A DNA stretch of 59,451 nt. Origin: Candidatus Thorarchaeota archaeon SMTZ1-45. Its GTDB lineage: Archaea > Asgardarchaeota > Thorarchaeia > Thorarchaeales > Thorarchaeaceae. Each line of letters starts with the position of its first letter. The first letter of the stretch is position 1. A program made the translations under genes and the position numbers. Below, in pieces: positions 3,428 to 59,451 of this stretch. A model generated the notes under the pieces. That model saw only the letters and a program-made list of their open reading frames with translations. It ran no database searches and had not been told where the DNA came from. The stretch spans positions 1-59,451 of the forward strand of contig LRSL01000015.1 of NCBI GenBank assembly GCA_001563335.1, read 5' to 3'.

Positions 3428-6019
3428 TTGAATTCAAGGAATATCGACTGCTCGGAGACAATGCCTGTGATAAAGATAGACCGGACCACATTTCTTGGAG
3501 CCACTTACGCAGTGGGCTTGATCCTGGTCGCACTGGCTATGATCTCAGGTCGTTATGCACACCCAGATGTCATCATTACACTTGTTGTCGAAACAGGACT
3601 ACTCTATATCTCATTATTTCGAGCCCCACTCAATAAGCGTCAAATTGGAATAATGGTCATCCTTGCATCCGCATATTACCCGCTCAGTGTACTATTAGGT
3701 ATCTTTTCGGATATGGTAATAGTGACTGTGGGTGGAGTTGCAATCTATGTAGCTATGACTGTAAGAGTCGAGCTTCATCCTACAAAGGCACTACTCGGAG
3801 GGCTGTACTCAGCAGGTGTTTTCTTTGCACTATATCTGACTGTTCAGCGGGGTGGATTGTATTCAGATATTTTGTTGGGGCTTGTCATTCATATACTATT
3901 GCTTTACATGGCTCTAAGTAAACGCCCGCCAGATAAGAAGGAACTAGGAGCGATCAGCATGTTGATTATGATATGCATCTCTCTTAGTCTATTCTTTAGA
4001 TTCTTCTCCCTTGTAGTCATTTGGGCAATTCTTAGTTGTGTCCTGTATGGGATTATCAGAGTTGAACCAAAATTCCCCTTGACAAAGCGAGCTATAGGGA
4101 CCGGCCTTATTGTTGGTGTAGTAATGACTTTCATGGGCATCTATCTTGCCCTTAAGATTGGAGTTGTTTTTCTAGTCGGAGCAGAAATGTTAGGAGCCAT
4201 TTTTCTTACCATGTACGGACTATACACCGGAGAGGAGAACACGATTGCAGTCACTATTGCAAATTCCTCCTCAATGGTCACATTAGGAGTGTTGCTAACA
4301 TATCCTGCCATTGCCATTTTCAGGCCAGACAACCCTCTGTTCAATATCAATCATGCTCACTATGACCCCACAACGACTCTCTTTTTCATTATAATCACCA
4401 CAGGGATTAGTGCTATCTTCGGGATTATTCTTTTAGCACCATTCAGAAACCGATTCGAGGAAGACCCTTGGCCTCAGGTTCAACCTCAGGCAGAATGCAT
4501 CAATTCCATTGGTGGAGATGCTGAAGCAAGAAGAAATGTGGGCACGGGACTTGTTGCGTCAGCAGCATATGTAGGTACAATAAAGGCTACAGAGAGTGTA
4601 GCAGGAAGAACACTAAGCACTGTGCCAAATGCTTTGGCACCTGTTATTCCTGCTGCCGCAGCAATCCCCGATTGGATTGGAATAAGCAACTCCCCTCTGA
4701 TTGCAGGTATTGGTTTCTTCGTGGGTTGGAAGAGAGCTCTCATTATGGTAATGGGAAGTGCACTATCAATTCTAATCTGGATATTCATAGAGGGGGCAGA
4801 TGGAACGATTCTTTATGGCATTCATTTGAAGAGACCTGAGATTCTCTATGTTGCGCTGGGTGTATTTGTTACAGTAATACTGGGGGACATACTGAGTGGA
4901 AGGGGCGAAAGAAACCTGACCCCCGAAGAAGTTCAAGACAGGATAAGATCAAAGCGTGAGGATGTAGATAGCACGGTCATTATAGAACACCCACATAAAA
5001 CGGAGGAACTTCCAAGGATTTTACGAGTTCGAGAAGAGCTATTCTCAGTCGAAACCTTCAAGGAGGAGATACGAGAGATTGTTGAAGACCCAAGAGGGTA
5101 TTTACGGTCAAGAAGAGGACAGATTCCTCCATGGATAGCATTTGTATCAATGGGACTGTTCATGATTGTGGGAATCATTGTCTTTTGGTTCATTAAACCA
5201 TTCATGCAGAGTGAAACAGCACCGCTCGAGATTCACTGGCTTCTATTCATTTTTGGAACACCTTTGGCACTTGTTTCAGCATATTTCACGGCACGAGCTA
5301 TTAGTGAAACCGGAATGCTTGCAGGCTATATCTCAGATATTATTGCCATCCCTGCAATAATTTTCTTTAGGGTCACTTTTTCAGCTATTACTACATTCAT
5401 CGGTATGTTGGGGGCGGTTCAGGATGCCGCAATAGCACTATTGGTTCATATCAAACTTGGAAGATTGACAGGCGTTCGTGCAAGAGATATAACGAAGGGA
5501 GTCTTCATAGGATGTGTTCTCGGAACTTCCATCGGTTCCATAATCACTTTCGAAATATTCAGTACATATGGATTTGGGGGTATTGATTTCCCAAGCCCTG
5601 CGGCTCAACTATTTGGATTTCTGGTGCTTAGTCTTGAGGGAATCGGAGACATGCAACTACCAGGCTTGGACAAGTTCCCAGACATTCATCCACTTCTTGC
5701 CTTCCTTTATCTTCTAGTCTGGGCAATAGGAGGGTTTCTTGCTGGTCGCGAGCTCAACAAGCGAGATCTGAGTCCAATTAGCCTTGTAGTTGGAGTACTT
5801 ATTCCACCAGCAACGTCCGTTGCGATTCTATTAGGTGGCTATATCAGCTACAGAATGAAACAACAGGAAAGACCAGTTCATCTATCAGATCTGCCACAAC
5901 AGATTGAAGTCTGCGATGTGGGGGGTAATAAAGTAAACAGGATTCTAAGCGGCGTTATTGCGGGAGAAGCTGTCATGACTGTGATTTGGGTACTTCTGAG
6001 TGCATTCATCTTCATCTAG
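3428..6019 (+). CDS. OPT/YSL family oligopeptide transporter with a duplicated N-terminal membrane extension
   Basis: LTKRAIG...YLALKIG...EENTIAVTIA, FPSPAAQL and SGVIAGEAV OPT motifs; many TM helices. Confidence 0.8.
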   Translation: MNSRNIDCSETMPVIKIDRTTFLGATYAVGLILVALAMISGRYAHPDVIITLVVETGLLYISLFRAPLNKRQIGIMVILASAYYPLSVLLGIFSDMVIVTVGGVAIYVAMTVRVELHPTKALLGGLYSAGVFFALYLTVQRGGLYSDILLGLVIHILLLYMALSKRPPDKKELGAISMLIMICISLSLFFRFFSLVVIWAILSCVLYGIIRVEPKFPLTKRAIGTGLIVGVVMTFMGIYLALKIGVVFLVGAEMLGAIFLTMYGLYTGEENTIAVTIANSSSMVTLGVLLTYPAIAIFRPDNPLFNINHAHYDPTTTLFFIIITTGISAIFGIILLAPFRNRFEEDPWPQVQPQAECINSIGGDAEARRNVGTGLVASAAYVGTIKATESVAGRTLSTVPNALAPVIPAAAAIPDWIGISNSPLIAGIGFFVGWKRALIMVMGSALSILIWIFIEGADGTILYGIHLKRPEILYVALGVFVTVILGDILSGRGERNLTPEEVQDRIRSKREDVDSTVIIEHPHKTEELPRILRVREELFSVETFKEEIREIVEDPRGYLRSRRGQIPPWIAFVSMGLFMIVGIIVFWFIKPFMQSETAPLEIHWLLFIFGTPLALVSAYFTARAISETGMLAGYISDIIAIPAIIFFRVTFSAITTFIGMLGAVQDAAIALLVHIKLGRLTGVRARDITKGVFIGCVLGTSIGSIITFEIFSTYGFGGIDFPSPAAQLFGFLVLSLEGIGDMQLPGLDKFPDIHPLLAFLYLLVWAIGGFLAGRELNKRDLSPISLVVGVLIPPATSVAILLGGYISYRMKQQERPVHLSDLPQQIEVCDVGGNKVNRILSGVIAGEAVMTVIWVLLSAFIFI

Positions 6020-23108: not shown

Positions 23109-25578
23109 CAGTAACACACTCTCCGAATGCAATACCCCCTTCTTTTCAAGCTAGATAGACTGTCGCAGAGAGGATAAGATAGTGGAGTTTAGTGAGAATC
23201 ATCCCTGAATGATGAGAGAATCTAACCCTTTGGATTTCATTCTTCTTGAATTGCCTTATATACTAGAAAAATAATGTATAGAGTATTTTCCATTTTGAAT
23301 TATACACAGAGAAACCTGATGAAGGAATTATACGAGATTAATAGGATGTGAAAGAACTAATCTTGTTAAATATTATAGCGAGTTTAAGTAGTATCATCAG
23401 GACTGGGATGTGGAGAATTAAACGGTGGGACAAGACATCCAGTGCCAGTCCTGGAAGCAATGGCAAAGGTCAAGACCAAAACCAAGGCAAGAATCAATGA
23501 TTGGCAAATATTATAGCGGTCCATCGACCAAATATCTTGTCGAGTCGTTTGTTCTCAGCTCTGAGGACAGAGTTGTTTTGAGAAAAGGAAAAGAGAGGAA
23601 ACCTGACCCTTCGTTCAAGGGCAATAGCACACAATTTTCTCAGCTCTCCTCTGCAGTGAGAGGAACAGGAAAGAAGGTCAAGGACATAGATCTTAGAACT
23701 CTTACATTCTATTTCGACAATTACATCAGAGCTGTCAATATTGTTCTTTCAAGGATATACAGGAATTCCAAGCGAGTAGAACAACTTGGAAAGACTCTTG
23801 CAAAGTATAGAGGGAAGTCATACATTCTTCTGAGCAAAGAAAAAGATCTATGCTACCAGCACAATGAAGACATCAAGAAATTGGTCTTTGGTCGTCTGCA
23901 TCGAAATGTCCTTGAACAGGCTGGGAGGATGCTCCTTGCTGACTGGACAAGAAGACAGCTTGTCATATCGGCTCTAAAGGTCCTTAATGATTCTCCGGAG
24001 GAATTGGTTACCATCCTTCGAAGAAGAAGGATTCCTTCATTTCTGATTAGAAAAGTCCGAGATTCCTGTGAGTCCACAAAGAACAACGGGTCAGGGTATC
24101 ACTACGCTATGGGTGTCCTCAGACAACTTCGTCTTGCTATCGATAAATACATTCTTGGTTTTACGAAGAACACGATAGGTTGGAGAGCCAGACAGAGAAA
24201 GAAAGTAGCATCTCTTCTAAAGGATGGTTCACCTGACTGTCAAAGTGTCATCAATATAGTAGAGTCGCAGGTTAAGAGTTGGGTTCAGAATGGATATCCA
24301 TTCACAGTCCCCCAGCTCAGAAGATATAGCCTTGACTTCTCAGCAAGCACCGAGAATTCCACTGGTCAAGGATACTGGTTCACTCCGGATGAGGAACGAG
24401 AGAATGAGATACTCCTTTATCTCAAGCTCCCTCCGGGGTTCAATGGAACTCACCACAAAGACTCACCGTACAAATCTAAGACCCTCACCTTTCGTTTCCT
24501 TGATTGGCTTCCTAGAGCTGCATCTCAGGATAGGAGAAAAGCTGAGAAAGCAGAGCGAGAAGGAAATATCCATCGGGTTGAACAACTAAGATTTCGTGCT
24601 GCAAAGTTCGAGGACATGCATCACCAGCTCATGAATACAATCAAGTTACAACACACAGCCCATAGACTATCAAGGATGAAACAGATAAAGCACAATGACT
24701 TGGATGAGATAATCAGACTACAACAAAAAGTAAGTCGACTGAAAGGCTATAGGAGATGTTCACCTCCTCAACTTCTTCTCAGAGGTCACAAGATCATCCT
24801 TCGGATACCGTTCCTTTCACCTAATGGACCAGTAAGCTCACAGATTTTTGGTGAGAGGAAGTATACAACTAAGGCAGGAGCTGACAGAGGATTACGAGCT
24901 CCAGTGGCGCTCACAGTGGAGAGAGAATGTTCCTTTGAGGACTTCCTCATCACAGTTGGACCGTTAGCCGAGAAGAGAGATAGAATCAGAAAACATGCTT
25001 ACACACTCACCTCAGAGTTAGCAAGAATGAAGAACAACTGGGAAAGCAAACGATCAGGACAGTCATATCCAGCACACATTATGAAGCGGGACAGGCATGT
25101 CGAAGCTCTGTGGAGAAAGGTTCGTCGTCTTGATCGTGAGATTGTCCGGCAGGTGGCCTCTCAGACAGTGTGGTTTTGTGAGGAACACAGAGTGAAGAGG
25201 TTGTTCTTTGAGGATTTGAGGAGCTTCCAAGGACATGCTGGGTCCAAACACGTTTCATACAACCTGACCTCGAATCTGTGGGGAAAAATCATCAATACAG
25301 TACGCTACATGAGAGAATCACTCGGACACTCAAAATATAGTGTGTGGACAGTGAATCCGCGATACACTTCTCAGACCTGTCACCAGTGTGGAGAAAAAGG
25401 CGTGCGAGTAAGGGATGAAAGCTCAATCATTGAGAGCAAGGGTGGAGAATACTTCTACTGCTCTGAGTGTAAAGAGCACTTCCATGCAGACATCAATGCA
25501 GCACGGAATATAATTCATGTTCAAGACTCCAGTGACGTTCCTGGAGGGACAAAGGTTTGTCCAGTTTACAATGAACGT
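23109..25578 (+). mobile_element. Transposase-less insertion carrying a large Cas12/TnpB-like nuclease, flanked by the 10-bp direct repeat TAGACGAACA
   Basis: TAGACGAACA at 23099-23108 and 25579-25588; removing the element plus one copy restores overlapping stops of the NIP7-like and PAC2 genes; no terminal inverted repeats seen. Confidence 0.65.
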
Positions 25579-31186: not shown

Positions 31187-31294
31187 GGGCCGGTGGTCTA
31201 GCCTGGTTATGACGTCGCCTTCACACGGCGAAAATCGGGAGTGGATCATGACATATGTCAGATTCACCGAATTCGAATCTCCCCCGGCCCACCA
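31187..31294 (+). tRNA. tRNA-Val(CAC) with a 30-nt non-canonical intron in the T arm (~31242-31271)
   Basis: Acceptor GGGCCGG/CCGGCCC + ACCA; anticodon arm TCGCC-TTCACAC-GGCGA; T arm GGGAG/CTCCC with loop TTCGAAT forms only after removing TGGATCATGACATATGTCAGATTCACCGAA. Confidence 0.88.
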
Positions 31295-35972: not shown

Positions 35973-37130
35973 ATGCTTGTTCACAGGGCCTATAGATATG
36001 AACTAGATCCGAATAACTCGCAGAGATCCTCTCTCCTTCAACATGCTGGAGTGTTTCGATTTACCTACAACTGGGGACTTGAACAACGAATTGCACTCTT
36101 CAAAAAGAACCAAGGAGCTGCAAGGTTTACTGATGCAATGAAACAACATAAGCTGTTGACAAGTTTGAAAAAGACACATTTCCCTTGGATGTACGAATGT
36201 TCAAAATGCGCCCCGCAAGAGGCTTCGAGAGACTTGCAAAGAGCATTCAATAATTTCTGTCGAGGTATGAAGACTGGAAAAAGAGTCGGATTTCCTAGGT
36301 TCAAAAAAAGAGGTGTGAATGATAGTTTCAGATTGTATGGAACAATAAGATTTGAGGGACAGAAGATTAAACTCCCAAGAATCGGAAAGGTTCGGATAAA
36401 AGAGAAGAGAAAGAAATACCATGATGGAAAGATTCTCTCTGTCACAGTAAGAAGAAGAGCAGACAGATGGTTTGTATCTATCTCTGTTGAAGAGGAGATT
36501 CCTGATCCAAAACCCATTGAAGGAAAAGCAGTGGGAGTTGACCTTGGAATCAGGACCTTAGCAACACTCTCTGATGGCACAATCTTCCTAAACCCGCAGG
36601 CATTAGGAGTACGATTGAATAAACTAAGAAAACTGTCAAAGAATCTATCAAAAAAACGGAGTGGGAGCAATAACCATGAGAAAGATAAGCTGCGATTATC
36701 CAAAATGCATCTGAAAATATTCAATATTCGACAGGACGCTCTCCATAAGTTGACAACCTATCTTGCCAAGAACCACAGCACGATAGTGATTGAAGACTTA
36801 CATGTGTCAGGATTGATGAAAAATAGGAGGTTGGCTAGAGCTATTGCAGATGTGGGTATGTTTGAGTTCAGAAGACAATTGAGATACAAGTGTCGATGGT
36901 ATTGATCAAAACTCCTTGTTGTATCGAGGACATATCCTTCATCAAAGAAATGTTCGAACTGTGATAATAAGAAAGAAATAACCCTATTAGAAAGAGAGTA
37001 TAGTTGTAAAATTTGTGGTTTGAGGATTGACCGAAACTTCAATGCTGAATGTAATCTAGTCGCCGTTAGTTTGCCGGAAACTCAAAATGCCTGTGGAGAG
37101 GATGTAAGACTTCGATTCACTCCCTCGTGA
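35973..37130 (+). pseudogene. tnpB: tnpB pseudogene (in-frame TGA at 36903-36905; RuvC-III D to N)
   Basis: HTH AYRYEL, VGVDLG, IVIEDL; frame continues after the stop with YPSSKKCSNC...CKICG..IDRNFNAECNL. Confidence 0.88.
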
Positions 37131-50334: not shown

Positions 50335-50595
50335 GTGATGGTGATTACAGTGAACGCAGGTAGACCTATGGAACTCCTTCAGAACTCGATTGGGGGTCAA
50401 GTACTTGTCGAGTTGAAAGGCAAGAAGAAAATCAAGGGAAAACTGCGTGGCTATGACCAGCACTTGAACCTCATCCTCGAGGATGCGGAAGAAATCTCAA
50501 CCGATCCTGAAACCGGTGAGCAGATAATCGAAGTGGTCAAGACCGTGATAGTGAGAGGCGACAATGTCGTGATTGTTTCACCTCCACCAAAATAG
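50335..50595 (+). CDS. Sm/Lsm protein
   Basis: GKLRGYDQHLNLILEDA, VRGDNVV; upstream of rpl37e as is usual in archaea. Confidence 0.93.
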   Translation: MMVITVNAGRPMELLQNSIGGQVLVELKGKKKIKGKLRGYDQHLNLILEDAEEISTDPETGEQIIEVVKTVIVRGDNVVIVSPPPK

Positions 50596-50607
50596 TTCAA
50601 GGAGTGT

Positions 50608-50802
50608 ATGATAATGGGAAAGGGAACACCCTCCAAAGGTAAGAAAAACAACCCACACCATATCAGATGCAGGAGATGTGGAAGAAGGTCCTATCACGTG
50701 AGACACAAGAAATGTGCGGCCTGTGGATTTGGTAGTTCTGCTAAGCTACGTCAGTACAACTGGGCGCACAAAAAGGTCCATGGACTCCGTGTTCGTGGAT
50801 GA
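50608..50802 (+). CDS. rpl37e: 50S ribosomal protein L37e
   Basis: [25 protein letters not shown]. Confidence 0.95.
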
Positions 50803-50808
50803 TTGTTT

Positions 50809-51093
50809 CTAAGATTCATCAAAGTAGCCATCGAATTCAGTGGATTCTTCATCAAACACCTCAAGCCGGTCTAAGAATGGGATGAGTGCAACCATTCCTC
50901 CTTTATCGCTTTCTGTCAATAATCTACCTTTACGATAGTGCCTATAGAGAGTACCTTTGTAGAAGATGCGGACAAACAGTTTGATGTAGATGATCAACAT
51001 GATGACGAAAAGCATTGAGAGAGCAAACATCATACCTGCAAGGTTTGAGCCCAACCAGTCCATGAACGAGGCTTGAATCATCATTTTGCGCAC
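50809..51093 (-). CDS. Small single-TM protein, weakly resembling an SPFH N-terminus
   Basis: TM helix followed by ...KGRL...GGMVALIPFLDRL. Confidence 0.4.
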   Translation of the reverse strand: MRKMMIQASFMDWLGSNLAGMMFALSMLFVIMLIIYIKLFVRIFYKGTLYRHYRKGRLLTESDKGGMVALIPFLDRLEVFDEESTEFDGYFDES

Positions 51094-51125
51094 TTTACCA
51101 AAATTGTAAGGACTCTTTATTGCTG

Positions 51126-51392
51126 TTATTGCTCATGCACATTTACAAAGAAGTGATTTAGTAAGATTAGGATTGCAACAAATGCAACCATCACCATAGT
51201 GACGATTAAAGCTATGATTGTTATTTGGTTAGAACTAATAATCACAATCAAGCCAATAAGATCTGTGAAGAAATAAAGAATTGCTAGAACTACTAGTAGA
51301 CCAGTGACACAGGCCAACCGTCTTCGTAGTTTTCTTGCCTCCAATGTCAGTTCTTCATTTGTCAGGCTACTAGTCATGAAACTCCCAATCAT
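51126..51392 (-). CDS. Small two-TM hypothetical protein
   Basis: Two hydrophobic helices. Confidence 0.5.
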   Translation of the reverse strand: MIGSFMTSSLTNEELTLEARKLRRRLACVTGLLVVLAILYFFTDLIGLIVIISSNQITIIALIVTMVMVAFVAILILLNHFFVNVHEQ

Positions 51393-51489
51393 ATGGAATC
51401 TATTAACGCATTTGAATTTACTGAGGAATCTATGGAACTACTCCGCAATTCTTTTAACCGTTCCATTAGGAACTGCGAACCAGCAACAT

Positions 51490-51566
51490 GGGCCGGTAGA
51501 TCAGCCCGGTAGATCGCCTCCTTGGCATGGAGGAGGTCGCGAGTTCGAATCTCGCCCGGTCCACCA
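51490..51566 (+). tRNA. tRNA-Ala(GGC)
   Basis: Acceptor GGGCCGG/CCGGTCC (G3:U70) + ACCA; anticodon arm CCTCC-TTGGCAT-GGAGG; T arm GCGAG-TTCGAAT-CTCGC. Confidence 0.95.
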
Positions 51567-51624
51567 CTTTTCATTCTAATAGTAAATTCACAAGACTCAT
51601 CTGAAGATTTCAAGGAATTATCTA

Positions 51625-52107
51625 GTGTGGAGATTGAGTGTGTCAGCAGTGAGCCCGGTTGAGCAGTCGAACAATATACTACTCAGTAAACTTTCACATC
51701 TGTCACGGATTGTGATGTTTGGTGCATTACCAGTCATAGAACACCTAGATTATGTAGAGTATTATAGGCGTATCATCAGTTACCCTTACAGACCCGGAGA
51801 CGTACTTCCAACCCCCCTGTTTTATCCAATGAATTTCCAAATTACATTGATAGCAGTGATTGCCATTGATCTGATAGTACTCTGGAAATGGTCGAAAAGA
51901 AGAGAGGATTATGAGATCTTTACATCCTGCATGTTTTTGTTTGAGCTGTTCCTGTTATTGTTGACTATTGAAGATTTTGGCAGGATTCCATTTACTCCGG
52001 ATATTGGAAATATTATACTCCTCCTAGGAGTGCTTCTATTTGGTCTTCTTCAGATTCTTCTAATAGCTAAGAGGCGATTCATGACAAGGAAAACAGCTCC
52101 AGCGTAG
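51625..52107 (+). CDS. Cassette 1: hypothetical membrane protein
   Basis: About 4 TM helices; stop codon 4 nt before a tRNA-end repeat. Confidence 0.6.
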   Translation: MWRLSVSAVSPVEQSNNILLSKLSHLSRIVMFGALPVIEHLDYVEYYRRIISYPYRPGDVLPTPLFYPMNFQITLIAVIAIDLIVLWKWSKRREDYEIFTSCMFLFELFLLLLTIEDFGRIPFTPDIGNIILLLGVLLFGLLQILLIAKRRFMTRKTAPA

Positions 52108-52111
52108 TAAA

Positions 52112-52136
52112 AGTTCGAATCTCGCACGGCCCACCA
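52112..52136 (+). repeat. tRNA-Ala 3'-end copy 1
   Basis: AGTTCGAATCTCGCACGGCCCACCA, 23/25 identical to the tRNA end; followed by TTTCTTTCT. Confidence 0.9.
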
Positions 52137-52205
52137 TTTCTTTCTGCAATCAATATCGTAATGAATGGACTTCAATAGAAACGATGCTTTTATACAGAAG
52201 TCACG

Positions 52206-52658
52206 ATGGTCATTATGGTTCAGATGGATTCGACGATATCCTTTGATGATTCATCGCTAGGAAATGCGAATAGAATAAGACTGGTATTCCTTGTTTATGC
52301 AGTAGTGTTGCCCCTTGTCAGTTTCATAATTCCCGAATCAGATCTCCCAGGTAACACTAATCCTTTGTTCCTTTCATGGGTACTTTTAGTGATGATGCCC
52401 ATAGAGCTTTTGCTCATCTACGTGTTCTTCCGTTTCTTTGAGAGGAGTACTCAGTGGGAGAGCATTATGGGTCCAGCTATTCTCATGTATATGGTCGCAA
52501 CAGCACCATCAATCTACGCTTTTATAATTGGATTCACTGACTCTGCTCTCCGGCTTCTCGCGATTCCGGTGGGATTGACATTTTCTCTCACTGGTCTGCT
52601 AATTGCAGCAATGTTCGTTTCGACTCTTTGGGAGAAGGTTTCAACCTCGAATCAATAA
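52206..52658 (+). CDS. Cassette 2: four-TM hypothetical protein
   Basis: Four hydrophobic helices. Confidence 0.65.
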   Translation: MVIMVQMDSTISFDDSSLGNANRIRLVFLVYAVVLPLVSFIIPESDLPGNTNPLFLSWVLLVMMPIELLLIYVFFRFFERSTQWESIMGPAILMYMVATAPSIYAFIIGFTDSALRLLAIPVGLTFSLTGLLIAAMFVSTLWEKVSTSNQ

Positions 52659-52674
52659 GCATTTCTTGTTTAAT

Positions 52675-52694
52675 GAATCTCGCCCGGTACACCA
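52675..52694 (+). repeat. tRNA-Ala 3'-end copy 2
   Basis: GAATCTCGCCCGGTACACCA, 19/20 identical; followed by CTTCTTCT. Confidence 0.88.
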
Positions 52695-52700
52695 CTTCTT

Positions 52701-53072
52701 CTATCTTCTTCTCTTGTCCGAAAGAGCATAGAAAAGAAGTAGATCTCCAATTATGATATTGCTGAGTGCGACAAAAAGATTTTGAACCCAAACTGTAACA
52801 CTGCTGGCAGCTAGTATACAAATCCCCCAGATTCCAGTTGTACTGAGATTCTCACCGATTTTTGAATTTGACTTATCATAGTACAACAAACCTATGGTTA
52901 GTAGAAGGAAAGCTGTTCCAACACCTAGTATTGTTAAAGAAAGTGTCCTCAATTCAGAAAGAAGAGCTATAGAAATTAATATTGATGAAATTGCAATTAT
53001 TAGTGTAATCTCGCCAGTCAAAATAAGTTGCGGATTTTTTCTTGTTGTTTCTGAACACATATTCAACTTCAC
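52701..53072 (-). CDS. Cassette 3a: four-TM hypothetical protein
   Basis: Hydrophobic helices, basic tail; stop codon 6 nt from the repeat CCA. Confidence 0.6.
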   Translation of the reverse strand: MKLNMCSETTRKNPQLILTGEITLIIAISSILISIALLSELRTLSLTILGVGTAFLLLTIGLLYYDKSNSKIGENLSTTGIWGICILAASSVTVWVQNLFVALSNIIIGDLLLFYALSDKRRR

Positions 53073-53204
53073 AGTAAAACGGTAAAATCTACTTTTTGCC
53101 TTGTTAACTGGTTACCATAGTAAAGAAAGTTTATCTGAAATCAATGTGCAAATTATCATTGAATCTTTTGGAGGAGAGTATTTACGCTCAGCTTTCGACA
53201 AGTA

Positions 53205-54866
53205 ATGATTTGGACTTCCATACTAACCACGCTAGTAATTGTAGTACCATTTGTTAGCGGCAATCTGGTTTTACATACTTGGAACGAGTCTGTTTCCAAA
53301 GCGGCGATGTTGGAAATAATCCCTCATGAACCAATAAGAATCATGGAGAATCAGGATTTCATCACTCAAGGGTGGCCTGGAAAGGGAACAATGAGTGAAC
53401 CCTATCTGATAGAGGATCTTCAGATACAGTGCGATGAGGAAACAGGAGTCTTCATAGCAAACATCACAGTCTTCTTCAAAATCAGTAATTGCAAGTTTAT
53501 TGCAGCTGACGGTGGAATGGCATTTTGGCTTATTAACGTAACAAATGGTGAAATCAGAAATTGCATATCTGAGTGGTGTGATTGGACAATCAGGAATTCA
53601 TCGCAGTGTAGAATAGAATCAACTAGTGCATCGGGTAGTGCAGGTTTAGTACTATGGGGCTGTACCAACTGCTCAGTTGTTGGTAACTCCTTGATTTCTG
53701 ATGTTTGGGGCCATGTAATCTTTGATACTTGCACCAATTGCGAATTTTCACGAAATACTGTGGTAGGATGTGAGTCAGAGGGAATTTGGCTTATCAGAGG
53801 CGTAAATTGCTCAATACGAGAGAATGAATTCGCAGAGAACAGTATAGGAATAAGTCTGCTGGGATCAAATGACACCTCGATTAGTGACAACAACATTCAT
53901 GATAATGTGTACTATGGAGTTGAGATTTACGCTTGTGGAGATACTCAACTGGTTGGGAACACCCTTCAGAATAATGGTGTTGTCCTTCACCTTTGGGACT
54001 GGGAATGGAACGGCCATTCAATCTCTGGACGAGAGTTCCTTAATGCCGAGTATCTATTTCAAGACAATACTGTTAATGGAAAGCTGCTAGGCTTCTTTCA
54101 AGATTTGGATGGGAGTAAAATTGATGGGACTTCATATGGCCAAGTTATTCTTTTGAACTGCAGCAACCTATCTATTGACCATGGAACAATTACCAATACA
54201 TCCATTGGTGTTCAGATTCTCTTCAGTGACAACTGTAGTATGACGGATATGACCATCGCTAACTGTAGCGCTGCTGGAACAGTCGTTGAGGAATCGAACA
54301 GCACTAAAGTTTTAGGTTGCAGCTTCTCCAGCAATGTAGACAGTGGCTTATTCTTTGAACGATCATTCAATGCTCTTGTTGCTAATTGCTCAATATCTGG
54401 AAGCCGCAGGGGTCTAGGACTGTGGTTTTCGGGACTATGTACTATCCTCAATACCACTTTGAGCTTCAACACATGGGGAACTGAGTTCTATAACACCTCA
54501 GATTGTTTCTTTGTGAACAACACAGTACTGTACAATAAGGGGGGAGTATATCTAGCCTTTAGCTGCGATAACAACATGATTTTTGGTAACTCGATAGGAT
54601 GGAATGAGTGGTATAACGCGCAAAGTGATAATTATAGCAACCAATGGGATGATGGAGTGAGCCGAGGCAACATGTGGAGTGACTATGATGGCTCTGGTGT
54701 CTATGAGATTAATCATTATGAAGTGGATCGATTTCCTGAACTACTCGTCGGGCCTTTCCCTTACATTGAGCTTGGCTTAATCAGTATTGGTGTGGTTGGA
54801 GGAGCCTTCATCGTAATTATTCTTATTCATATAATTAGGTCACGAAGAATCTCCAACGAGCTGTAA
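53205..54866 (+). CDS. Cassette 3b: NosD/CASH right-handed beta-helix surface protein
   Basis: Signal peptide, GWPGKGT..EPYLIE, repeated GI.L..S.N..I..N units, GNMWSDYDG, C-terminal TM + basic tail. Confidence 0.85.
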   Translation: MIWTSILTTLVIVVPFVSGNLVLHTWNESVSKAAMLEIIPHEPIRIMENQDFITQGWPGKGTMSEPYLIEDLQIQCDEETGVFIANITVFFKISNCKFIAADGGMAFWLINVTNGEIRNCISEWCDWTIRNSSQCRIESTSASGSAGLVLWGCTNCSVVGNSLISDVWGHVIFDTCTNCEFSRNTVVGCESEGIWLIRGVNCSIRENEFAENSIGISLLGSNDTSISDNNIHDNVYYGVEIYACGDTQLVGNTLQNNGVVLHLWDWEWNGHSISGREFLNAEYLFQDNTVNGKLLGFFQDLDGSKIDGTSYGQVILLNCSNLSIDHGTITNTSIGVQILFSDNCSMTDMTIANCSAAGTVVEESNSTKVLGCSFSSNVDSGLFFERSFNALVANCSISGSRRGLGLWFSGLCTILNTTLSFNTWGTEFYNTSDCFFVNNTVLYNKGGVYLAFSCDNNMIFGNSIGWNEWYNAQSDNYSNQWDDGVSRGNMWSDYDGSGVYEINHYEVDRFPELLVGPFPYIELGLISIGVVGGAFIVIILIHIIRSRRISNEL

Positions 54867-54933
54867 TCAAATTCCGCTCTGCATCATAGGTAAACCTTGA
54901 CATATATCATACTCTGTAGTCATTTTCAAAGAC

Positions 54934-54967
54934 GAGGTCGCGTGTTCGAATCGCGCCCGGTCCACCA
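54934..54967 (+). repeat. tRNA-Ala 3'-end copy 3 (longest; variant T stem)
   Basis: GAGGTCGCGTGTTCGAATCGCGCCCGGTCCACCA, 32/34 identical; followed by TTTATTTTCT. Confidence 0.92.
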
Positions 54968-55208
54968 TTTATTTTCTAACAGGGATCAGTCACGAATCTT
55001 TTAGAACTAATTACTCAAGGAACTGCGCTTGCTCTAGAATGACTGTAATTATAGCGTCAAACATTTTCTATTTATATCATGGATGTTATACGAGCTACTG
55101 TGTTACTGCTTGCGTTTCTCTTTGAAGGAAGTGGGCCAAGAATAATCAAGTTCCTTGAAAGAATCACACTAGTTTCGAAATAAAAGACATATTGTGCGTT
55201 AGGAGAAC

Positions 55209-56075
55209 TTGAGAACAGTGAAAGATAACAAGAGAATTATGAAAGAGTACCCTCTAATAAGCGGAATCTTAGTAACAATAGTTTTCAGTCTTGTATTGAG
55301 TATAAATCTCATCCTAAGGCTCGGAGACGTATTAAATGATGCTGGTTTTCCAGAGATATTCATTCTGGTAATTGATTTTTCAGTTCGTTTTCTTTCAGGT
55401 GCAATATGCGTTACTCTGATAATTCCACTCATTCTATACTTCTCACTAAGCAAGAAAATCCTCAAAGTCTATGTTAAGGATGATATCCGTATTAGACAAA
55501 ACGTTTCTATATCTAGATCCAGCTTAGTGGGCGTACTTTCAGCGCTATGTTTTTTCGTTATTTGTATCATAATGGCCTTATTCTTAGGAGTTCTTAGTCT
55601 AGATTTCAGTCTAATATTGAGCTATCCCACAGAGGGATTTGCTGGCTGGTTCATTTTCATTTATGCATTAATTCCAGCCTTATGGGAAGAGATGACATTT
55701 CGTGGAGTCGTACTAAATACAGTCTTGGGAAAATACAGTGAAAAAATCGCAATCCTAGTGAGCAGCTTGTTATTTGGGCTATTTCATTTTACAAATTTAC
55801 TGTTTGAACCATTAGAGTTGGTCTTCTTCTATTTCATAATGTCGACGCTCTATGGTATGGCCTGGGGCTATTCGGTTGTCAAATGCGGTAATGTTATACC
55901 GGGTATTGTCGCGCACTATTTGATTGATGCATTTGGTCTGCCTTTCATTAGTATCCAAAGCGCTGAACAAGCTATTGTGGGCACTTTCTTCATGTCCATT
56001 TCATTCTTGTATCCATTAGTTACGATTCTTCTGCTGTACTATGTTTTTAGTTTTAGAAATAAAACGAGAGGATAG
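55209..56075 (+). CDS. Cassette 4: CPBP/CAAX (Abi-family) intramembrane protease
   Basis: EEMTFRG, FGLFH, AHYLID motifs. Confidence 0.9.
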   Translation: MRTVKDNKRIMKEYPLISGILVTIVFSLVLSINLILRLGDVLNDAGFPEIFILVIDFSVRFLSGAICVTLIIPLILYFSLSKKILKVYVKDDIRIRQNVSISRSSLVGVLSALCFFVICIIMALFLGVLSLDFSLILSYPTEGFAGWFIFIYALIPALWEEMTFRGVVLNTVLGKYSEKIAILVSSLLFGLFHFTNLLFEPLELVFFYFIMSTLYGMAWGYSVVKCGNVIPGIVAHYLIDAFGLPFISIQSAEQAIVGTFFMSISFLYPLVTILLLYYVFSFRNKTRG

Positions 56076-56076
56076 G

Positions 56077-56232
56077 ATACTGGATTCCGGTGATAACGTA
56101 GACGAGGTGCTCGAAGCTGTAAAAGGATCTGGCCGCCAATTGATTGAACAGGGGAAGTTGACACCAAAGACATTGAACACTGTGAGTCGTCAGCTTCTTC
56201 CCATAGAGAGCTATGTACAAGTTGTGGAATGA
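56077..56232 (+). pseudogene. Probable C-terminal remnant of a flavodoxin-like/NAD(P)H oxidoreductase gene
   Basis: DEVLEAVKGSGRQLIEQGKLTPKTLNTVSRQLLP resembles the C-terminal helices of that family; no N-terminus present. Confidence 0.4.
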
Positions 56233-56256
56233 TTAACTGAAGATATCAGACCCATC

Positions 56257-56274
56257 ATCTCTCCCAGTCCACCA
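56257..56274 (+). repeat. tRNA-Ala 3'-end copy 4 (degenerate)
   Basis: ATCTCTCCCAGTCCACCA, 16/18 identical. Confidence 0.7.
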
Positions 56275-56277
56275 GCT

Positions 56278-56946
56278 TCATTTTGAATTAAACATTAGGC
56301 AGTAACTGTGATTATAGCCATAGATGTGTGGACTATCTCCATAATCCGTGCCCTGCCAACATGCAATAATCTCTTTTTCAAAATCAAGGACTTGGGATAA
56401 AACACGACCCACATCCCAAGCCAGGAGGGTCCCTGGTCGAGTACTGGTGGCTCCTAGGTTGAAGACCTCAACAATCACCTTGGCCTCAGGTTTTAGGAAT
56501 GCACGTAACTTCCGAAATATTATCTGAAGCTGATTTAGATAGTCCTGATAGGTCCCATTCTCTGTAAAGCCAGAAAGCGGATTCTTTTTTTCATCACTTC
56601 TCATGAAAATGGGTGATGTGAAAACAAAGTCGATGAGCGGCAATTGGAATTCGTCTAGATTTCGGGAGTCGCCAAGGATGATATTATCCTTGAATTCAAT
56701 TTGGGAGCGGATATACTCAAAACGATCTTTATCAGCCTCAATTCCAAATGGTATCCGATCCATTTCCTCAGCAACAAGGAGTGTCGTTCCAAGACCTGCA
56801 AAAGGATCAAAGACTGTGTCGCCTGGTTGAGTGAACTGATGGATGAGGTATTCAATGAGTGATTCAGGTGTTCTATTGTCATCATCATGGAATTCTTCAG
56901 GAATCTGACGTCGTTTTATGTATGGTAGAAGAATGTATGTCTGCAT
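56278..56946 (-). CDS. Cassette 5: orphan N4/N6 DNA methyltransferase-like protein
   Basis: TPESLIEYLI..FTQPGDTVFDPFAGLGTT (motif I) and FTSPIF (SPPY-like motif IV). Confidence 0.75.
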   Translation of the reverse strand: MQTYILLPYIKRRQIPEEFHDDDNRTPESLIEYLIHQFTQPGDTVFDPFAGLGTTLLVAEEMDRIPFGIEADKDRFEYIRSQIEFKDNIILGDSRNLDEFQLPLIDFVFTSPIFMRSDEKKNPLSGFTENGTYQDYLNQLQIIFRKLRAFLKPEAKVIVEVFNLGATSTRPGTLLAWDVGRVLSQVLDFEKEIIACWQGTDYGDSPHIYGYNHSYCLMFNSK

Positions 56947-57005
56947 ATCCCTAACAGCACCTTAGATAGCTTGATGCTTGATACTTCTTCAGGAACATAA
57001 ACGAA

Positions 57006-57027
57006 TCGAATCTCGCCCGGTCCACCA
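57006..57027 (+). repeat. tRNA-Ala 3'-end copy 5
   Basis: TCGAATCTCGCCCGGTCCACCA, 22/22 identical; followed by CCTCTCTTCT. Confidence 0.92.
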
Positions 57028-57087
57028 CCTCTCTTCTCCATTAAATCCAGCTTGTGAGTTCTTTTTCAAGACAACATAATCAGAACC

Positions 57088-58383
57088 CTATGAACGTCTA
57101 CGAACACGGAAGATATTGATCAGAAAAATTGCTAATACGACACCTGAAACGATGACGAGGACTGGATTGAGATGAGATGCTGGAAACAGACCTATATCAA
57201 CGAGTACTAGATTTCGAATCTCTGTTGTGTTCCGGGCGATGTCATACCAGTCATTGGAATTGTAGTTCAAGATGCAATTCACATTTGAAAGCCAGACATA
57301 CCCCATCATCTTTGTAGGATTGAAGTACATCAGACCCTTATATCCGATAGTAGAACCTCCATGACCAAAGAGACCGTGGGAGAAGATATCCAGACCAAGA
57401 CCATACCCCTCCCAGCGGAGTTCCGATGGAACGGTATTCTCACTGGCGAAGTCTGATACTCTCTCAAGCATCATGTCGATTGTTTCTGGCTGGAGGATCT
57501 GAGAGTCACCGATCTGTCCTCCATTCATGAGGGCGATCATGAGATGTCCCAGATCGCTCACTGTGCTTCGCATCATGTGTTGTCCATCCCATATAGGTAA
57601 CTCAAGGTTTGACCCGGATATGCGTGTGTGAGGTAAGGCATGATGACCTATGAAGTCTGAAGAATTGAATCCTGTGTTGTTCATGAACAACGGACTGAAG
57701 ATATTCTCTTGCATGTAGTCTGAGATAGTCTGTTCTGACACCGTTTCTATAAGATACATCAATATCTTGTAGCCAGCGTTAGAGTAGCTGTACTGGGTTC
57801 CTGGTTCAAATAGCCAGTTAGAACTGCTGTAGTAAGAACCACTTGGAGTCAAGCACTCGTTGAGGAAATCGCCTAATGAAAGGCCGATTACAGGAGTATA
57901 GTATTCTCGCCCATATGCGTAGTCGGGATAATAGGCACCTTCCCAATCATAGCAGAACTCATGTGGTAGAAGAGTAGCCAACCCAGTTCGATGTGCAAGC
58001 AGCATTCTGATTGTGATGGCAACATCGGAGTAACTAGGATTTGAAATTTCAAAGGGAAGGTAATCACTAACATCATTGTCTAATTCAATGCTACCATTCT
58101 CAAAGAGTTGTAGTATTGAGATTGCCACGAGTGTTTTTTGTATAGAGCCTATGAGAAAGACAGTATCATAGGCGGTCTGTGCTCCGAAACCTTTCACCCA
58201 GCTTATCTCGTCATTAGAAACTACGCAAGCATGAAATGATGGGATGTTACCTTCAGTGACAATTCTTCCAATTTCCTCCTCTACACGAGATGAAACAATT
58301 CCGGTCCCAGTGCCATTACATAGGGGAACAAATAGACCAACAACAAGGAGGAGGATGAAGATCGAGGTGATTATCCTCTTCAT
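57088..58383 (-). CDS. Cassette 6: secreted, membrane-anchored serine hydrolase (beta-lactamase/AmpC-like fold)
   Basis: Signal peptide, SxxK (GSIQK), LLAHRTG, YSYSN, GHGG; C-terminal TM + RVRRRS. Confidence 0.88.
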   Translation of the reverse strand: MKRIITSIFILLLVVGLFVPLCNGTGTGIVSSRVEEEIGRIVTEGNIPSFHACVVSNDEISWVKGFGAQTAYDTVFLIGSIQKTLVAISILQLFENGSIELDNDVSDYLPFEISNPSYSDVAITIRMLLAHRTGLATLLPHEFCYDWEGAYYPDYAYGREYYTPVIGLSLGDFLNECLTPSGSYYSSSNWLFEPGTQYSYSNAGYKILMYLIETVSEQTISDYMQENIFSPLFMNNTGFNSSDFIGHHALPHTRISGSNLELPIWDGQHMMRSTVSDLGHLMIALMNGGQIGDSQILQPETIDMMLERVSDFASENTVPSELRWEGYGLGLDIFSHGLFGHGGSTIGYKGLMYFNPTKMMGYVWLSNVNCILNYNSNDWYDIARNTTEIRNLVLVDIGLFPASHLNPVLVIVSGVVLAIFLINIFRVRRRS

Positions 58384-58535
58384 GATTAGTCTCTCTCAAT
58401 AAGGGGAATTCTTCAAGGAATCCTGTGTTTCGATTGCATATATTTGGAGTAGTTGGCGCAATGCCCGACCTTAATCCTATACTCTTCTGAGAAATGGTTT
58501 GCATAGTGAGGAGAAGAGTGATAGTCATCACTGAA

Positions 58536-58558
58536 TTCGAGTCGTACCTAGTCCACCA
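58536..58558 (+). repeat. tRNA-Ala 3'-end copy 6 (degenerate)
   Basis: TTCGAGTCGTACCTAGTCCACCA keeps TTCGA and GTCCACCA at the correct spacing; followed by TTTCGTTTCTTT. Confidence 0.7.
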
Positions 58559-58617
58559 TTTCGTTTCTTTGTTCGAAACTCTTTTCCTATTTCGTGTCAA
58601 TATAGCATGAAAGTGAA

Positions 58618-59370
58618 ATGTCAATTCGTGTACTCACCCTCGTTCTCTTCTGCTCTATCTTACTGGTCCAACCACACCCAATTCTATCACAAAATCAAAC
58701 AGGTCTTCCTGAATTCTTAGATATTGGATCATATGCTCAGTATAAACAAGAGTTCTCAAATGATGAAACACATGAATTATATTGGAAAATAAAATCAGTG
58801 GAACCAGATACTATCGAGATAGAAATTCGCTCCCATGGTCTGATTTTCAATTCCACAACTGACTCGTTTGCCATTGTTCCAGGTGGTGGAAAATTGATAG
58901 TCGATAGAGATTCATTATTCATTCTCAATGCATTTCATCCAAATGGTTCTGAGATCGATGGATATCCAGTGAATAAGAAGATAGCATTCTGGATTTCAAC
59001 CAAAACAAACGAGAGTACTCCAATCAACACGATGTATGAAACAAATGAATATCCTGTGTCTGTTGGACCACTAGAATTTGACTGCTTGCCCACCACACGA
59101 ATATGTTGGTTGACAGAAAATGTATACTCAGTGGGAAATCAGATGAACCGGTATTATGATCAACAAACGGGAATTGTCTTGATGATTGAAACCAATCGTA
59201 GTATTCTCAATGCAGAGATATCAGTGTTAGAAACACTAAATGATACAAACATCCTACCATTAATTGAGAGTTGGAACGATTTCGATTGGGAATTATCGAT
59301 TACTCTTCTAGCTATCAGTATAGTAGGCATTACTCTATTAGTAGCAGTATTCTATCATCGCAGAAGATAA
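58618..59370 (+). CDS. Cassette 7: secreted, membrane-anchored hypothetical protein
   Basis: Signal peptide, GSYAQY, YYDQQTGIVL, C-terminal TM + HRRR. Confidence 0.7.
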   Translation: MSIRVLTLVLFCSILLVQPHPILSQNQTGLPEFLDIGSYAQYKQEFSNDETHELYWKIKSVEPDTIEIEIRSHGLIFNSTTDSFAIVPGGGKLIVDRDSLFILNAFHPNGSEIDGYPVNKKIAFWISTKTNESTPINTMYETNEYPVSVGPLEFDCLPTTRICWLTENVYSVGNQMNRYYDQQTGIVLMIETNRSILNAEISVLETLNDTNILPLIESWNDFDWELSITLLAISIVGITLLVAVFYHRRR

Positions 59371-59386
59371 TCCTGAGAGTAATCCG

Positions 59387-59404
59387 ATCTCGCCCAGTCC
59401 ACCA
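59387..59404 (+). repeat. tRNA-Ala 3'-end copy 7
   Basis: ATCTCGCCCAGTCCACCA, 17/18 identical; followed by TTTCTCCTTTT. Confidence 0.85.
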
Positions 59405-59451
59405 TTTCTCCTTTTGATTTGGGGTACTTATCATCTCCATCTTGATCGGTT

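Follow-up and report, generated by a model that had tools for sequence, protein, structure and literature searches.

The array behind tRNA-Ala(GGC)

The stretch examined here is the 59,451-nt contig LRSL01000015.1 of Candidatus Thorarchaeota archaeon SMTZ1-45 (hereafter the window), which is the whole of contig C15 in a 3.54-Mb genome of 119 contigs and 87.7% completeness (G000; G labels denote genomes and L labels fetched loci). Near its right-hand end lies an intact tRNA-Ala(GGC) gene, and the sequence behind it is divided into short units of one or two genes, each closed by a direct copy of the 3' end of this tRNA (Table 1). We refer to these units as cassettes and to their tandem row as the array, of which the tRNA-Ala gene is the anchor, with a role like that of attB or attI. 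The gene was the single tRNA called in the window by ARAGORN with default settings and the only match in an Rfam scan of the array, in which no other RNA family was found. At up to three mismatches, the 18-mer ATCTCGCCCGGTCCACCA has eight matches in the window, every one on the + strand, against 0.02 expected by chance, and none of 100 shuffles attained eight. These are the tRNA-Ala gene itself, six array copies and positions 31277–31294, the 3' end of a second, intron-containing tRNA. This second tRNA (105 nt, 31187–31291, + strand, 43.5 bits to the Rfam tRNA model) was overlooked by the default ARAGORN run. The six array copies match the last 18 nt of tRNA-Ala on the same strand with at most two mismatches and end at 52136, 52694, 54967, 56274, 57027 and 59404. 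A further copy, ending at 58558, is probably a degenerate one: it does not match the 18-mer at three mismatches or fewer, and positions 58536–58558 have 17/23 identity to the T-loop-to-CCA segment. Within this copy TTCGA and GTCCACCA are matched perfectly, and a pyrimidine tract comes next. The length of tRNA identity varies among the window copies from 18 to 37 nt, and the copy at 54931–54967 extends into the anticodon stem and carries a compensatory variant in its T-stem.

An earlier sequence-only reading of this DNA had described an intact tRNA-Ala anchor, at least seven direct copies of its end, and units without an integrase, transposase or replication gene that hold one or two genes in either orientation. 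The anchor was confirmed by both ARAGORN and Rfam, and the unit lengths given in that reading follow from the repeat coordinates. Six of the copies are clear; the one ending at 58558 stands as probable only. The gene content is borne out by the map of open reading frames (ORFs), with nine ORFs in total, one or two per unit, in both orientations. Five units are indeed packed against the repeat, at a distance of 3–18 nt between stop codon and repeat instead of the 3–16 nt first given; the stop codon of the cassette 5 methyltransferase lies 3 nt past the preceding CCA. When the nine proteins of the cassettes were run against Pfam together with an ORF on the upstream side of the tRNA, no integrase, transposase or replication domain was found, as the reading had claimed, and this methyltransferase was the sole PADLOC match.

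About three further cassettes probably follow on contig C20, read in reverse complement, a join suggested by the overlap of the last 9 nt of the window with the start of the reverse-complemented C20 and by the homology of the C20 end to the cassette that follows the equivalent repeat in G013 (76% over 1409 nt). The first two C20 cassettes are each closed by a weaker tRNA-Ala end. Lrp- and AsnA-like genes follow the C20 cassettes, and the same genes bound the array in G012; the array of G001 stops nearer, at a shared TrmO-like gene. With the C20 join, the full array would be ~12 kb long and comprise ~ten cassettes, with no integrase at its far end. Extension of the contig, which had been proposed as a way to find the array end and any tyrosine recombinase, has thus led to a probable end and to no such enzyme there. 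The block of tRNA-Ala, array and Lrp/AsnA-like genes is inverted relative to the LSm-L37e genes when the window (50335–51566) is compared with G001 and G012 (L028, L024).

Table 1. Features of the tRNA-Ala array, its probable continuation and 5' tRNA-Ala fragments in related loci (window positions unless a locus or contig is named)
Feature	Position	Strand	Remarks
tRNA-Ala(GGC), intact, intron-less, CCA encoded	51490–51566	+	ARAGORN; Rfam RF00005, 65.1 bits
Cassette 1, 570 bp	51567–52136	+	closed by 23-nt copy at 52114–52136
Cassette 1 ORF, 160-aa multi-pass membrane protein	51625–52107	+	sole Pfam match 7TMR-DISM_7TM, below cut-off
Cassette 2, 558 bp, family F1	52137–52694	+	closed by 20-nt copy at 52675–52694
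Cassette 2 ORF, 150-aa membrane protein	52206–52658	+	no Pfam family
Cassette 3, 2273 bp	52695–54967	+	closed by long 37-nt copy at 54931–54967
Cassette 3 ORF, 123-aa membrane protein	52701–53072	-	ORF map, Pfam
Cassette 3 ORF, 553-aa NosD/right-handed beta-helix protein with C-terminal membrane anchor	53205–54866	+	Pfam
Cassette 4, 1307 bp	54968–56274	+	closed by 18-nt copy at 56257–56274
Cassette 4 ORF, 288-aa Rce1-like/CPBP membrane protease	55209–56075	+	Pfam
Cassette 4 ORF, 63 aa, without family	56041–56232	+	ORF map, Pfam
Cassette 5, 753 bp, family F2	56275–57027	+	closed by 22-nt copy at 57006–57027, preceded by family-specific arm AAACGAA
Cassette 5 ORF, 222-aa solitary N6/N4 DNA methyltransferase	56278–56946	-	Pfam, PADLOC
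Cassette 6, 1531 bp	57028–58558	+	closed by probable degenerate copy at 58536–58558 (17/23)
Cassette 6 ORF, 431-aa beta-lactamase-family serine hydrolase	57088–58383	-	Pfam
Cassette 7, 846 bp	58559–59404	+	closed by 18-nt copy at 59387–59404
Cassette 7 ORF, 250-aa secreted protein with C-terminal anchor	58618–59370	+	no Pfam family
Cassette 8, start only	59405–59451	+	runs past contig end; probable continuation on reverse complement of C20
First C20 cassette, amidohydrolase	C20
Second C20 cassette, membrane protein and helix-turn-helix (HTH) protein (two genes)	C20
Third C20 cassette, old-yellow-enzyme-like (OYE)	C20
5' tRNA-Ala fragment	L018 959–979
5' tRNA-Ala fragment	L023 7917–7937
5' tRNA-Ala fragments	L026 5823–5843, 8386–8406
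5' tRNA-Ala fragments	L027 2020–2040, 3189–3209

Modularity, shuffling and spread of the cassettes

The units are modular and their order is shuffled between species, and arrays of this anatomy are spread over several tRNA genes and the genus. Twenty array loci, which were chosen for having copies, so that the reversed-sequence control speaks for specificity only, contain 88 direct copies, all on the tRNA strand, compared with 0 in the reversed sequences. The 64 units between neighbouring copies are 285–5309 bp long (median 902 bp) and have a median coding fraction of 0.815. One ORF is present in 44 units, two in 11 and three or more in 9, some of which probably hide a decayed repeat. The stop codon lies at a median distance of 17.5–31 nt from the repeat, and the longest ORF is encoded on the repeat strand in 38 units and on the opposite strand in 26.

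The methyltransferase cassette (family F2) was found at 14 places in 11 of the 28 genus genomes. Nucleotide homology among its homologues is limited to window positions 56278–57031, and all aligned homologues retain the right-hand tRNA end, which is intact in some and decayed in others (strongly in some repeats) and in which AAACGAA or AAACAAA precedes TCGA (junction AAACGAA/TCGAATC). Since the left neighbour varies, at times without a repeat, while the right-hand end is kept, the repeat belongs to the cassette; the proposal of integrase-less modules of one or two genes, each closed by its own tRNA-end copy, is upheld by these boundaries. Ala-type ends were present at 11 of the 14 places, no end within three mismatches at 3, and the end of another tRNA species at none. 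A search of metagenome contigs with the 22-nt junction motif gave 0 matches to near-identical methyltransferase cassettes elsewhere, and a scan of metagenome contigs with the tRNA-end motif gave 31 loci, with further arrays and no integrase.

Families F1, F2 and F3 align end to end between genomes and differ in order and neighbours: in G000 other units lie between F1 and F2, in G018 the two stand side by side, and in G010 their order is reversed. Full-length ~560-bp homologues of cassette 2 (F1) are present in 4 other array loci, each in a different context, and a homologous protein is encoded in the array of the closed Thorarchaeota chromosome G040; for cassette 7, related cassette ends were found in L022 and L015. 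Between G001 and G012, the flanks are 84–87% identical, the first cassette and the segment after the OYE cassette are unrelated, and the OYE cassette itself is 94.3% identical over its whole repeat-to-repeat length, so that the breakpoints coincide with the repeats. Identical gene order in relatives, without gain or loss of cassettes, had been named by the sequence-only reading as evidence against it; content and order differ between relatives. Cassettes common to G040 and the genus are 77–81% identical, compared with ~69% for the adjacent core genes (G040 versus G000), which suggests exchange of cassettes between genera, unequal constraint being an alternative. A different kind of repeat occurs in G011 (L021, 2357–4131), with two full tRNA-Ala(TGC) genes in 849-bp tandem units of 98.6% identity and a third, decayed full-length copy; this is a duplication of the whole tRNA rather than of a 3'-end fragment.

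The arrays are not confined to tRNA-Ala, so the sequence-only reading understated their scope. Scanning G000 with the last 18 nt of each predicted tRNA and counting same-strand downstream copies yielded three copies for tRNA-Leu(GAG), two for tRNA-Gln(TTG) and one for tRNA-Cys, and three more arrays had Gly-, Thr- and unassigned-type ends with no intact anchor tRNA recognised. Upstream copies occur in G000 only at side-by-side real tRNA genes or beside a spurious ARAGORN call. In every G000 array the identity begins around the T-loop (TTCGAATC or TTCAAATC), runs to CCA and is followed by a pyrimidine tract. We rejected this tract as a special feature of the sites, since it also follows ordinary tRNA genes of G000 and is thus not diagnostic. 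The cassettes of these other arrays, as read by eye, presumably encode acetyltransferases, thioesterase-like, HD-domain, and membrane or secreted proteins.

Among relatives, the tRNA-Ala end (at most two mismatches) occurs 3–16 times per genome in 18 of 18 same-genus genomes, with 0 in the reversed control throughout; this was the search of relatives that the sequence-only reading had called for. Twelve further genomes, each from a different other genus of the phylum, contain it 0–2 times, low counts that do not equal absence because the tRNA sequences there may differ. The tRNA-Leu end, which is the same in three Leu genes of G000, is found 3–21 times per genome in all 28 genus genomes, many of the copies clustered (control 0). 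The exact 22-mer is present in records titled Thorarchaeota, Promethearchaeota, Heimdallarchaeota and Aenigmatarchaeota, among others. The three heimdallarchaeotal loci have one copy each and the three aenigmatarchaeotal loci one, one and two; all loci with at least three copies that bear a phylum title are of Thorarchaeota or Promethearchaeota. The closed chromosome G040 holds six tRNA-Ala ends within 4.8 kb (L155, 1757413–1762212).

The site boundary is family-specific. Among 87 copies, tRNA identity extends past the 18-mer by 0–2 nt in 13, by 3–5 nt (T-loop) in 31, by 6–10 nt (T-stem) in 24, by 11–30 nt in 17 and over the full tRNA in 2. The tRNA-Ala(GGC) gene of relatives has one to three introns (L014, L015, L018, L024, L025, L026, L028, L030, L032). 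One place is the D-loop, where the intron follows position 21, another is the anticodon loop, and the third is immediately ahead of the T-loop; the last of these, the T-arm intron, sits precisely at the start point of most cassette repeats. Several cassette repeats include the last bases of a tRNA intron or an entire intron, so the sites derive from DNA and not from mature tRNA. Cassette repeats in G010 carry T-stem variants of other species' tRNA-Ala and not those of its own, which indicates that sites are imported along with the cassettes. The cassette sites are not attC-like: seven 110-nt junctions folded as single-stranded DNA (ssDNA) no better than shuffles (z-scores of -0.80 to +2.01 against 200 shuffles), and no inverted-repeat structure was seen in them, as the sequence-only reading had expected when it proposed a check against attC sites. 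Extra copies of the ~50-nt tRNA-Ala promoter with the first 21–51 nt of the tRNA are also present, on the 5' side or alone (Table 1). These 5' fragments form a mirror-image set and suggest that recombination takes place in the 5' half of the tRNA too.

The gene upstream of the array is L37e/LSm. Between L37e and tRNA-Ala lies an 88-aa membrane ORF (51126–51392, - strand), in a segment (~51130–51440) that the G014 locus, collinear apart from this, lacks. Variation is thus seen on the 5' side of tRNA-Ala too. The GC content of the array (0.40 at 51001–57000) is below that of most of the contig (0.43–0.46), a weak signal only. With introns allowed, ARAGORN called a spurious tRNA-Tyr with a 1.3-kb intron at 53628–54967, ending at the long tRNA-end copy, which shows that tRNA-end fragments can produce false tRNA annotations.

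Proposed origin and rival explanations

We propose, and give the proposal an even chance of being right, that the arrays arise by serial Campbell-type integration of integrase-less cassettes at the T-loop-to-3'-end segment of tRNA genes, driven in trans by an integrase-type enzyme from rare elements. The array of the window would then have been built up in tandem, as one Campbell-type event after another took place in the 3' part of tRNA-Ala. Each unit would represent a miniature integrative cassette of one (sometimes two) genes with its own promoter region of ~60 nt, bounded at one end by a tRNA-trailer-like pyrimidine tract and at the other by an attachment site that extends from the T-loop, or from further 5', to CCA. 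Recombination between the cassette site and the tRNA gene would restore an intact tRNA and leave a partial copy behind the cassette, repeated rounds would stack cassettes, and excision with re-entry, or exchange between relatives, would shuffle them; the partner in such an event could be either the tRNA gene or a further copy of the site. As the cassettes encode no recombinase, we infer catalysis in trans, most likely by a T-loop-crossover tyrosine integrase carried by rare mobile elements, and host homologous recombination between repeats may add to the shuffling. What the arrays show directly is their anatomy, modularity, shuffling and spread; a circular intermediate, entry beside the tRNA, a direction of insertion and an integrase are inferred from that anatomy. 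A T-loop-to-3'-end identity block is the classical footprint of tyrosine integrases that target tRNAs; Williams in 2002 reportedly described it as usual for one class of these enzymes. The block seen here matches that footprint, so the word 'hybrid', by which the sequence-only reading had placed the array between integrons and tRNA islands, fits the integron-like behaviour (modules, shuffling) and does not denote a demonstrated new mechanism.

Several findings weigh against this proposal, above all those on the enzyme. In G000, Phage_integrase (PF00589), Resolvase (PF00239), Cas1 (PF01867), the IS110 DEDD family (PF01548), Y1 transposase (PF01797) and RVT_1 (PF00078) had 0 matches each, while control genomes were positive for each family, and a hidden Markov model (HMM) of tyrosine recombinases, made with 17 sequences of the genus and one of G040, matched nothing at E ≤1 in 6107 ORFs of G000. 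PF00589 was unmatched in 20 of the 28 genus genomes and matched in 8, mostly on short contigs; the 18 genus integrase loci that were fetched held neither a tRNA nor a tRNA fragment, and a tblastn search of 18 integrases (17 of the genus, one of G040) against 112 array loci (713 kb) matched only a remnant in G001 and nothing inside Ala arrays. The single, divergent tyrosine recombinase of G040 lies ~660 kb from its array. That array has no adjacent tRNA, and the 19 kb of sequence retrieved contained no tRNA-Ala 5' exon. Outside the array, G040 has a single close match to the tRNA-Ala end (2269684), with CTT instead of CCA as its last bases. Neither an excised circle nor an empty site was seen in four metagenome runs, of which only contigs were available, uninformative on excision. 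Cassette homologues are 70–85% identical, a divergence close to that between the species themselves, and may therefore have moved long ago. Repeat decay showed no significant relation to distance from the tRNA (rho 0.25, p 0.15, n 35), which leaves strictly tRNA-proximal insertion unsupported. The trans-acting recombinase posited by the sequence-only reading was thus not found in G000, and the tyrosine recombinases of 8 of the 28 genus genomes are not beside tRNA ends; nor did the four runs show excised circles, for which it had proposed to look, or gain and loss within a population, the contigs being uninformative on excision. Since G000 is incomplete and metagenome-assembled genomes (MAGs) tend to miss plasmids and viruses, absence of the recombinase is not proven.

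Two candidate helpers were rejected: the genus integrases, of whose 18 loci none carries a tRNA end, and the G040 recombinase, which has a homologue in 0 of the 28 genus genomes. The scores of this recombinase and of one integrase of the genus fall far short of the XerA cut-off. The G001 remnant (L028) is a truncated tyrosine integrase (4305–4888, - strand) beside a multi-intron tRNA (5058–5196, + strand) and 728 nt from an inverted T-loop-to-CCA copy of the last 18 nt of that tRNA (3560–3577). The region (3560–5196) may be an integrase-mediated inversion or a decayed element; its position beside a tRNA-end fragment indicates that integrases using such sites were once present in the genus, not as part of the arrays. 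In a search for an attP-bearing virus, the 22-nt tRNA-end motif had 0 exact matches in viral contigs. Two joints in the run contigs appear to skip sequence (51572 to 52114; 51568 to 54949) and are ambiguous, their short sides lying inside repeats, and no joint going back on itself occurs among the contigs of the four runs. TnpB-like frames are alone among such genes in G000, in which no Y1 transposase was found. Five TnpB-like (Cas12f1-like_TNB) matches were obtained, two of them in the window (25279–25512 and 36864–37055, + strand) and the others on C36, C34 and C69 (134465–134632). One has an open frame of 719 aa, one window copy has an in-frame TGA, and the C69 copy lies ~200 nt upstream of tRNA-Leu(TAA).

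An unlikely alternative is erosion, in which a normal kb-sized, integrase-bearing virus or plasmid integrated at each repeat and was deleted down to one or two cargo genes; later reshuffling would then be only homologous recombination between leftover repeats, and the small units would never have moved site-specifically. Tandem integration and integrase loss are described for archaeal elements in excerpts of PMC8371274, and Prochlorococcus islands with scattered partial tRNAs and fragmented integrases in excerpts of 10.1101/2020.12.28.424599; the G001 remnant shows that the genus once had such elements, G000 has no resident integrase, and some repeats are strongly decayed. Erosion, however, predicts debris and variable boundaries, whereas 44 of the 64 units are a single intact ORF at the high coding fraction given above, the 713 kb of array loci contain no integrase fragment in any Ala array, and the boundaries of the 753-bp unit are identical across many species and neighbourhoods. 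Around ten successive erosions at several tRNAs in every genome of the genus would also be unparsimonious. Rather improbable, too, is a dedicated capture system, in which an undescribed recombinase family recognises the T-arm and acceptor or host recombination acts through the 18–23-nt repeats. The presence of arrays throughout the genus, set against the absence of known recombinase families from G000 and from most of its relatives in the genus, would fit it, as would the one boundary rule (T-loop to CCA plus pyrimidine tract) at Ala, Leu, Gln, Cys and other ends and the single distant tyrosine recombinase of the closed genome G040. Yet no candidate protein was found, MAGs usually miss plasmids and viruses, and tRNA identity of varying length, as seen here, typifies attP sites from different integrase-borne origins. 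That a cassette family keeps one tRNA type (the methyltransferase with Ala at 11 of 14 places and no other) is equally well accounted for by sequence-matched att pairing. We regard as similarly doubtful the broader notion of a tRNA-anchored, integron-like capture platform that serves many tRNA genes at once, stocks promoter-bearing single-gene cassettes, exchanges them across genera and works by a recombinase outside the known site-specific families or by host machinery that acts on tRNA-end sites of ~20 nt.

Target-site duplication by a staggered cut like that of casposase or CRISPR, or a relic of tRNA-primed reverse transcription, would agree with a minimal repeat of 18 nt including CCA and with the resemblance to repeat-spacer arrays, and is very improbable nonetheless. 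A fixed stagger would yield a single length, whereas the repeats range from 18 to >40 nt in a family-specific manner and those of one genome carry tRNA variants of other species; tRNA-intron sequence in some repeats shows that a mature tRNA was not the source. The units, moreover, have promoters and both orientations (38 +, 26 -), and G000 lacks Cas1 and reverse transcriptase (PF01867 and PF00078, 0 matches). Target-duplication and retro-type models are therefore largely excluded. The chance that the repeats merely created chimeric contigs during assembly or binning is practically negligible: the contig does end within the array and many relatives' contigs break there, but assemblies made independently (at least 18 genomes) show the same architecture, as do one closed chromosome and metagenome contigs of unrelated origin, and contigs of four runs cross unit junctions with 0 differences, including a 4776-nt record that spans 52628–57403. 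Serial integration at the tRNA end is the reading that we favour.

Significance and comparison with known systems

The array looks like a gene-collecting site. Gene acquisition by Asgard archaea has been studied, yet little is known of its machinery, and the arrays are sequence-defined places of single-gene difference, with a cargo of surface and membrane proteins, hydrolases, a solitary DNA methyltransferase and acetyltransferases. Should the cassettes prove to be mobile as whole units, and should their enzyme be found, the system would parallel integrons in a natural way, with tRNA ends in place of attC hairpins. It could also yield a compact (~20 nt) site-specific insertion system for archaea. 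They also explain assembly breaks at tRNA genes of Thorarchaeota, are a source of false or partial tRNA calls, and offer easy markers of strain-level variation in sediments.

Archaeal gene capture was reportedly described by She et al. in 2001. As in tRNA accretion and archaeal gene capture by pNOB8/SSV-type and other tyrosine integrases, the direct repeats here equal the 3' part of a tRNA from a loop to the 3' end, with the intact tRNA regenerated, and several elements lie behind one tRNA. Accretion elements are ~3–100 kb long, whereas the units described here have a median of 0.9 kb, mostly hold one gene and stand ~ten in a row, with no integrase or remnant in any Ala array, and they are spread over several tRNAs and all genomes of the genus that were searched. 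Cis-mobilizable elements (CIMEs) of streptococci are bounded by att sites at a tRNA 3' end, lack integration genes and are moved by the integrase of a related element. The presence of att sites on both sides and the lack of integration genes are seen in the arrays too, and G001 has a degraded integrase beside a similar tRNA-end fragment. CIMEs are decayed integrative and conjugative or integrative and mobilizable elements (ICEs/IMEs) of several kb and depend on a related element resident in the host; the searches of G000 found no helper of this kind. Insertion beside a tRNA or leader with a repeat copy after each insert is shared with casposons and CRISPR, from which the arrays differ in their variable-length, cassette-borne repeat and their lack of terminal inverted repeats and of Cas1. 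Tandem integration and integrase-less integrated elements are known in archaea, according to parts of PMC8371274.

Tycheposon islands of Prochlorococcus adjoin tRNA genes, are hypervariable and carry niche genes, according to excerpts of 10.1101/2020.12.28.424599. They share with the arrays hypervariability beside a tRNA, newcomers that push older elements inward, scattered partial tRNAs and a niche-gene cargo. In those excerpts, tycheposons carry their own tyrosine recombinase and a replication module and the partial tRNAs are read as remnants of degraded elements, whereas the regular unit in Thorarchaeota is a single gene with its site and no element-borne integrase. Integrons and clusters of attC sites lacking integron-integrases (CALINs) are reported as enriched in Asgard archaea (PMC9668308), where, in the sections seen, they are defined by attC and tRNA is unmentioned. 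The arrays resemble them in being tandem rows of short, mostly single-gene cassettes (44 of 64 with one ORF, median 902 bp), each with its own site and in an order that varies between relatives, and, as in archaeal integrons and CALINs of those sections, mostly without an adjacent integrase and with small membrane proteins, acetyltransferases and proteins without assigned function; the G040 array, as an 'orphan', is comparable to a CALIN. Unlike integrons, they have tRNA 3' ends instead of attC hairpins (z -0.8 to +2.0), no IntI and no attI beside intI (0 matches to PF00589 and to the genus HMM in G000), and, unlike typical integrons, cassettes with their own promoter space and mixed orientation (38 +, 26 -). 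The Asgard mobile-element papers, in the portions consulted, describe aloposons, integrated viruses and ICE-like elements and not tRNA-end cassette arrays. No description of such arrays was found in full-text searches of the literature, in line with the sequence-only reading, which knew of no matching system in Asgard archaea, although supplementary lists of small elements (Asgard mobile elements, tycheposons) could hold cases. Accretion at tRNA sites is itself known; what is new here is its reduction to integron-like single-gene cassettes, genus-wide and at several tRNAs.

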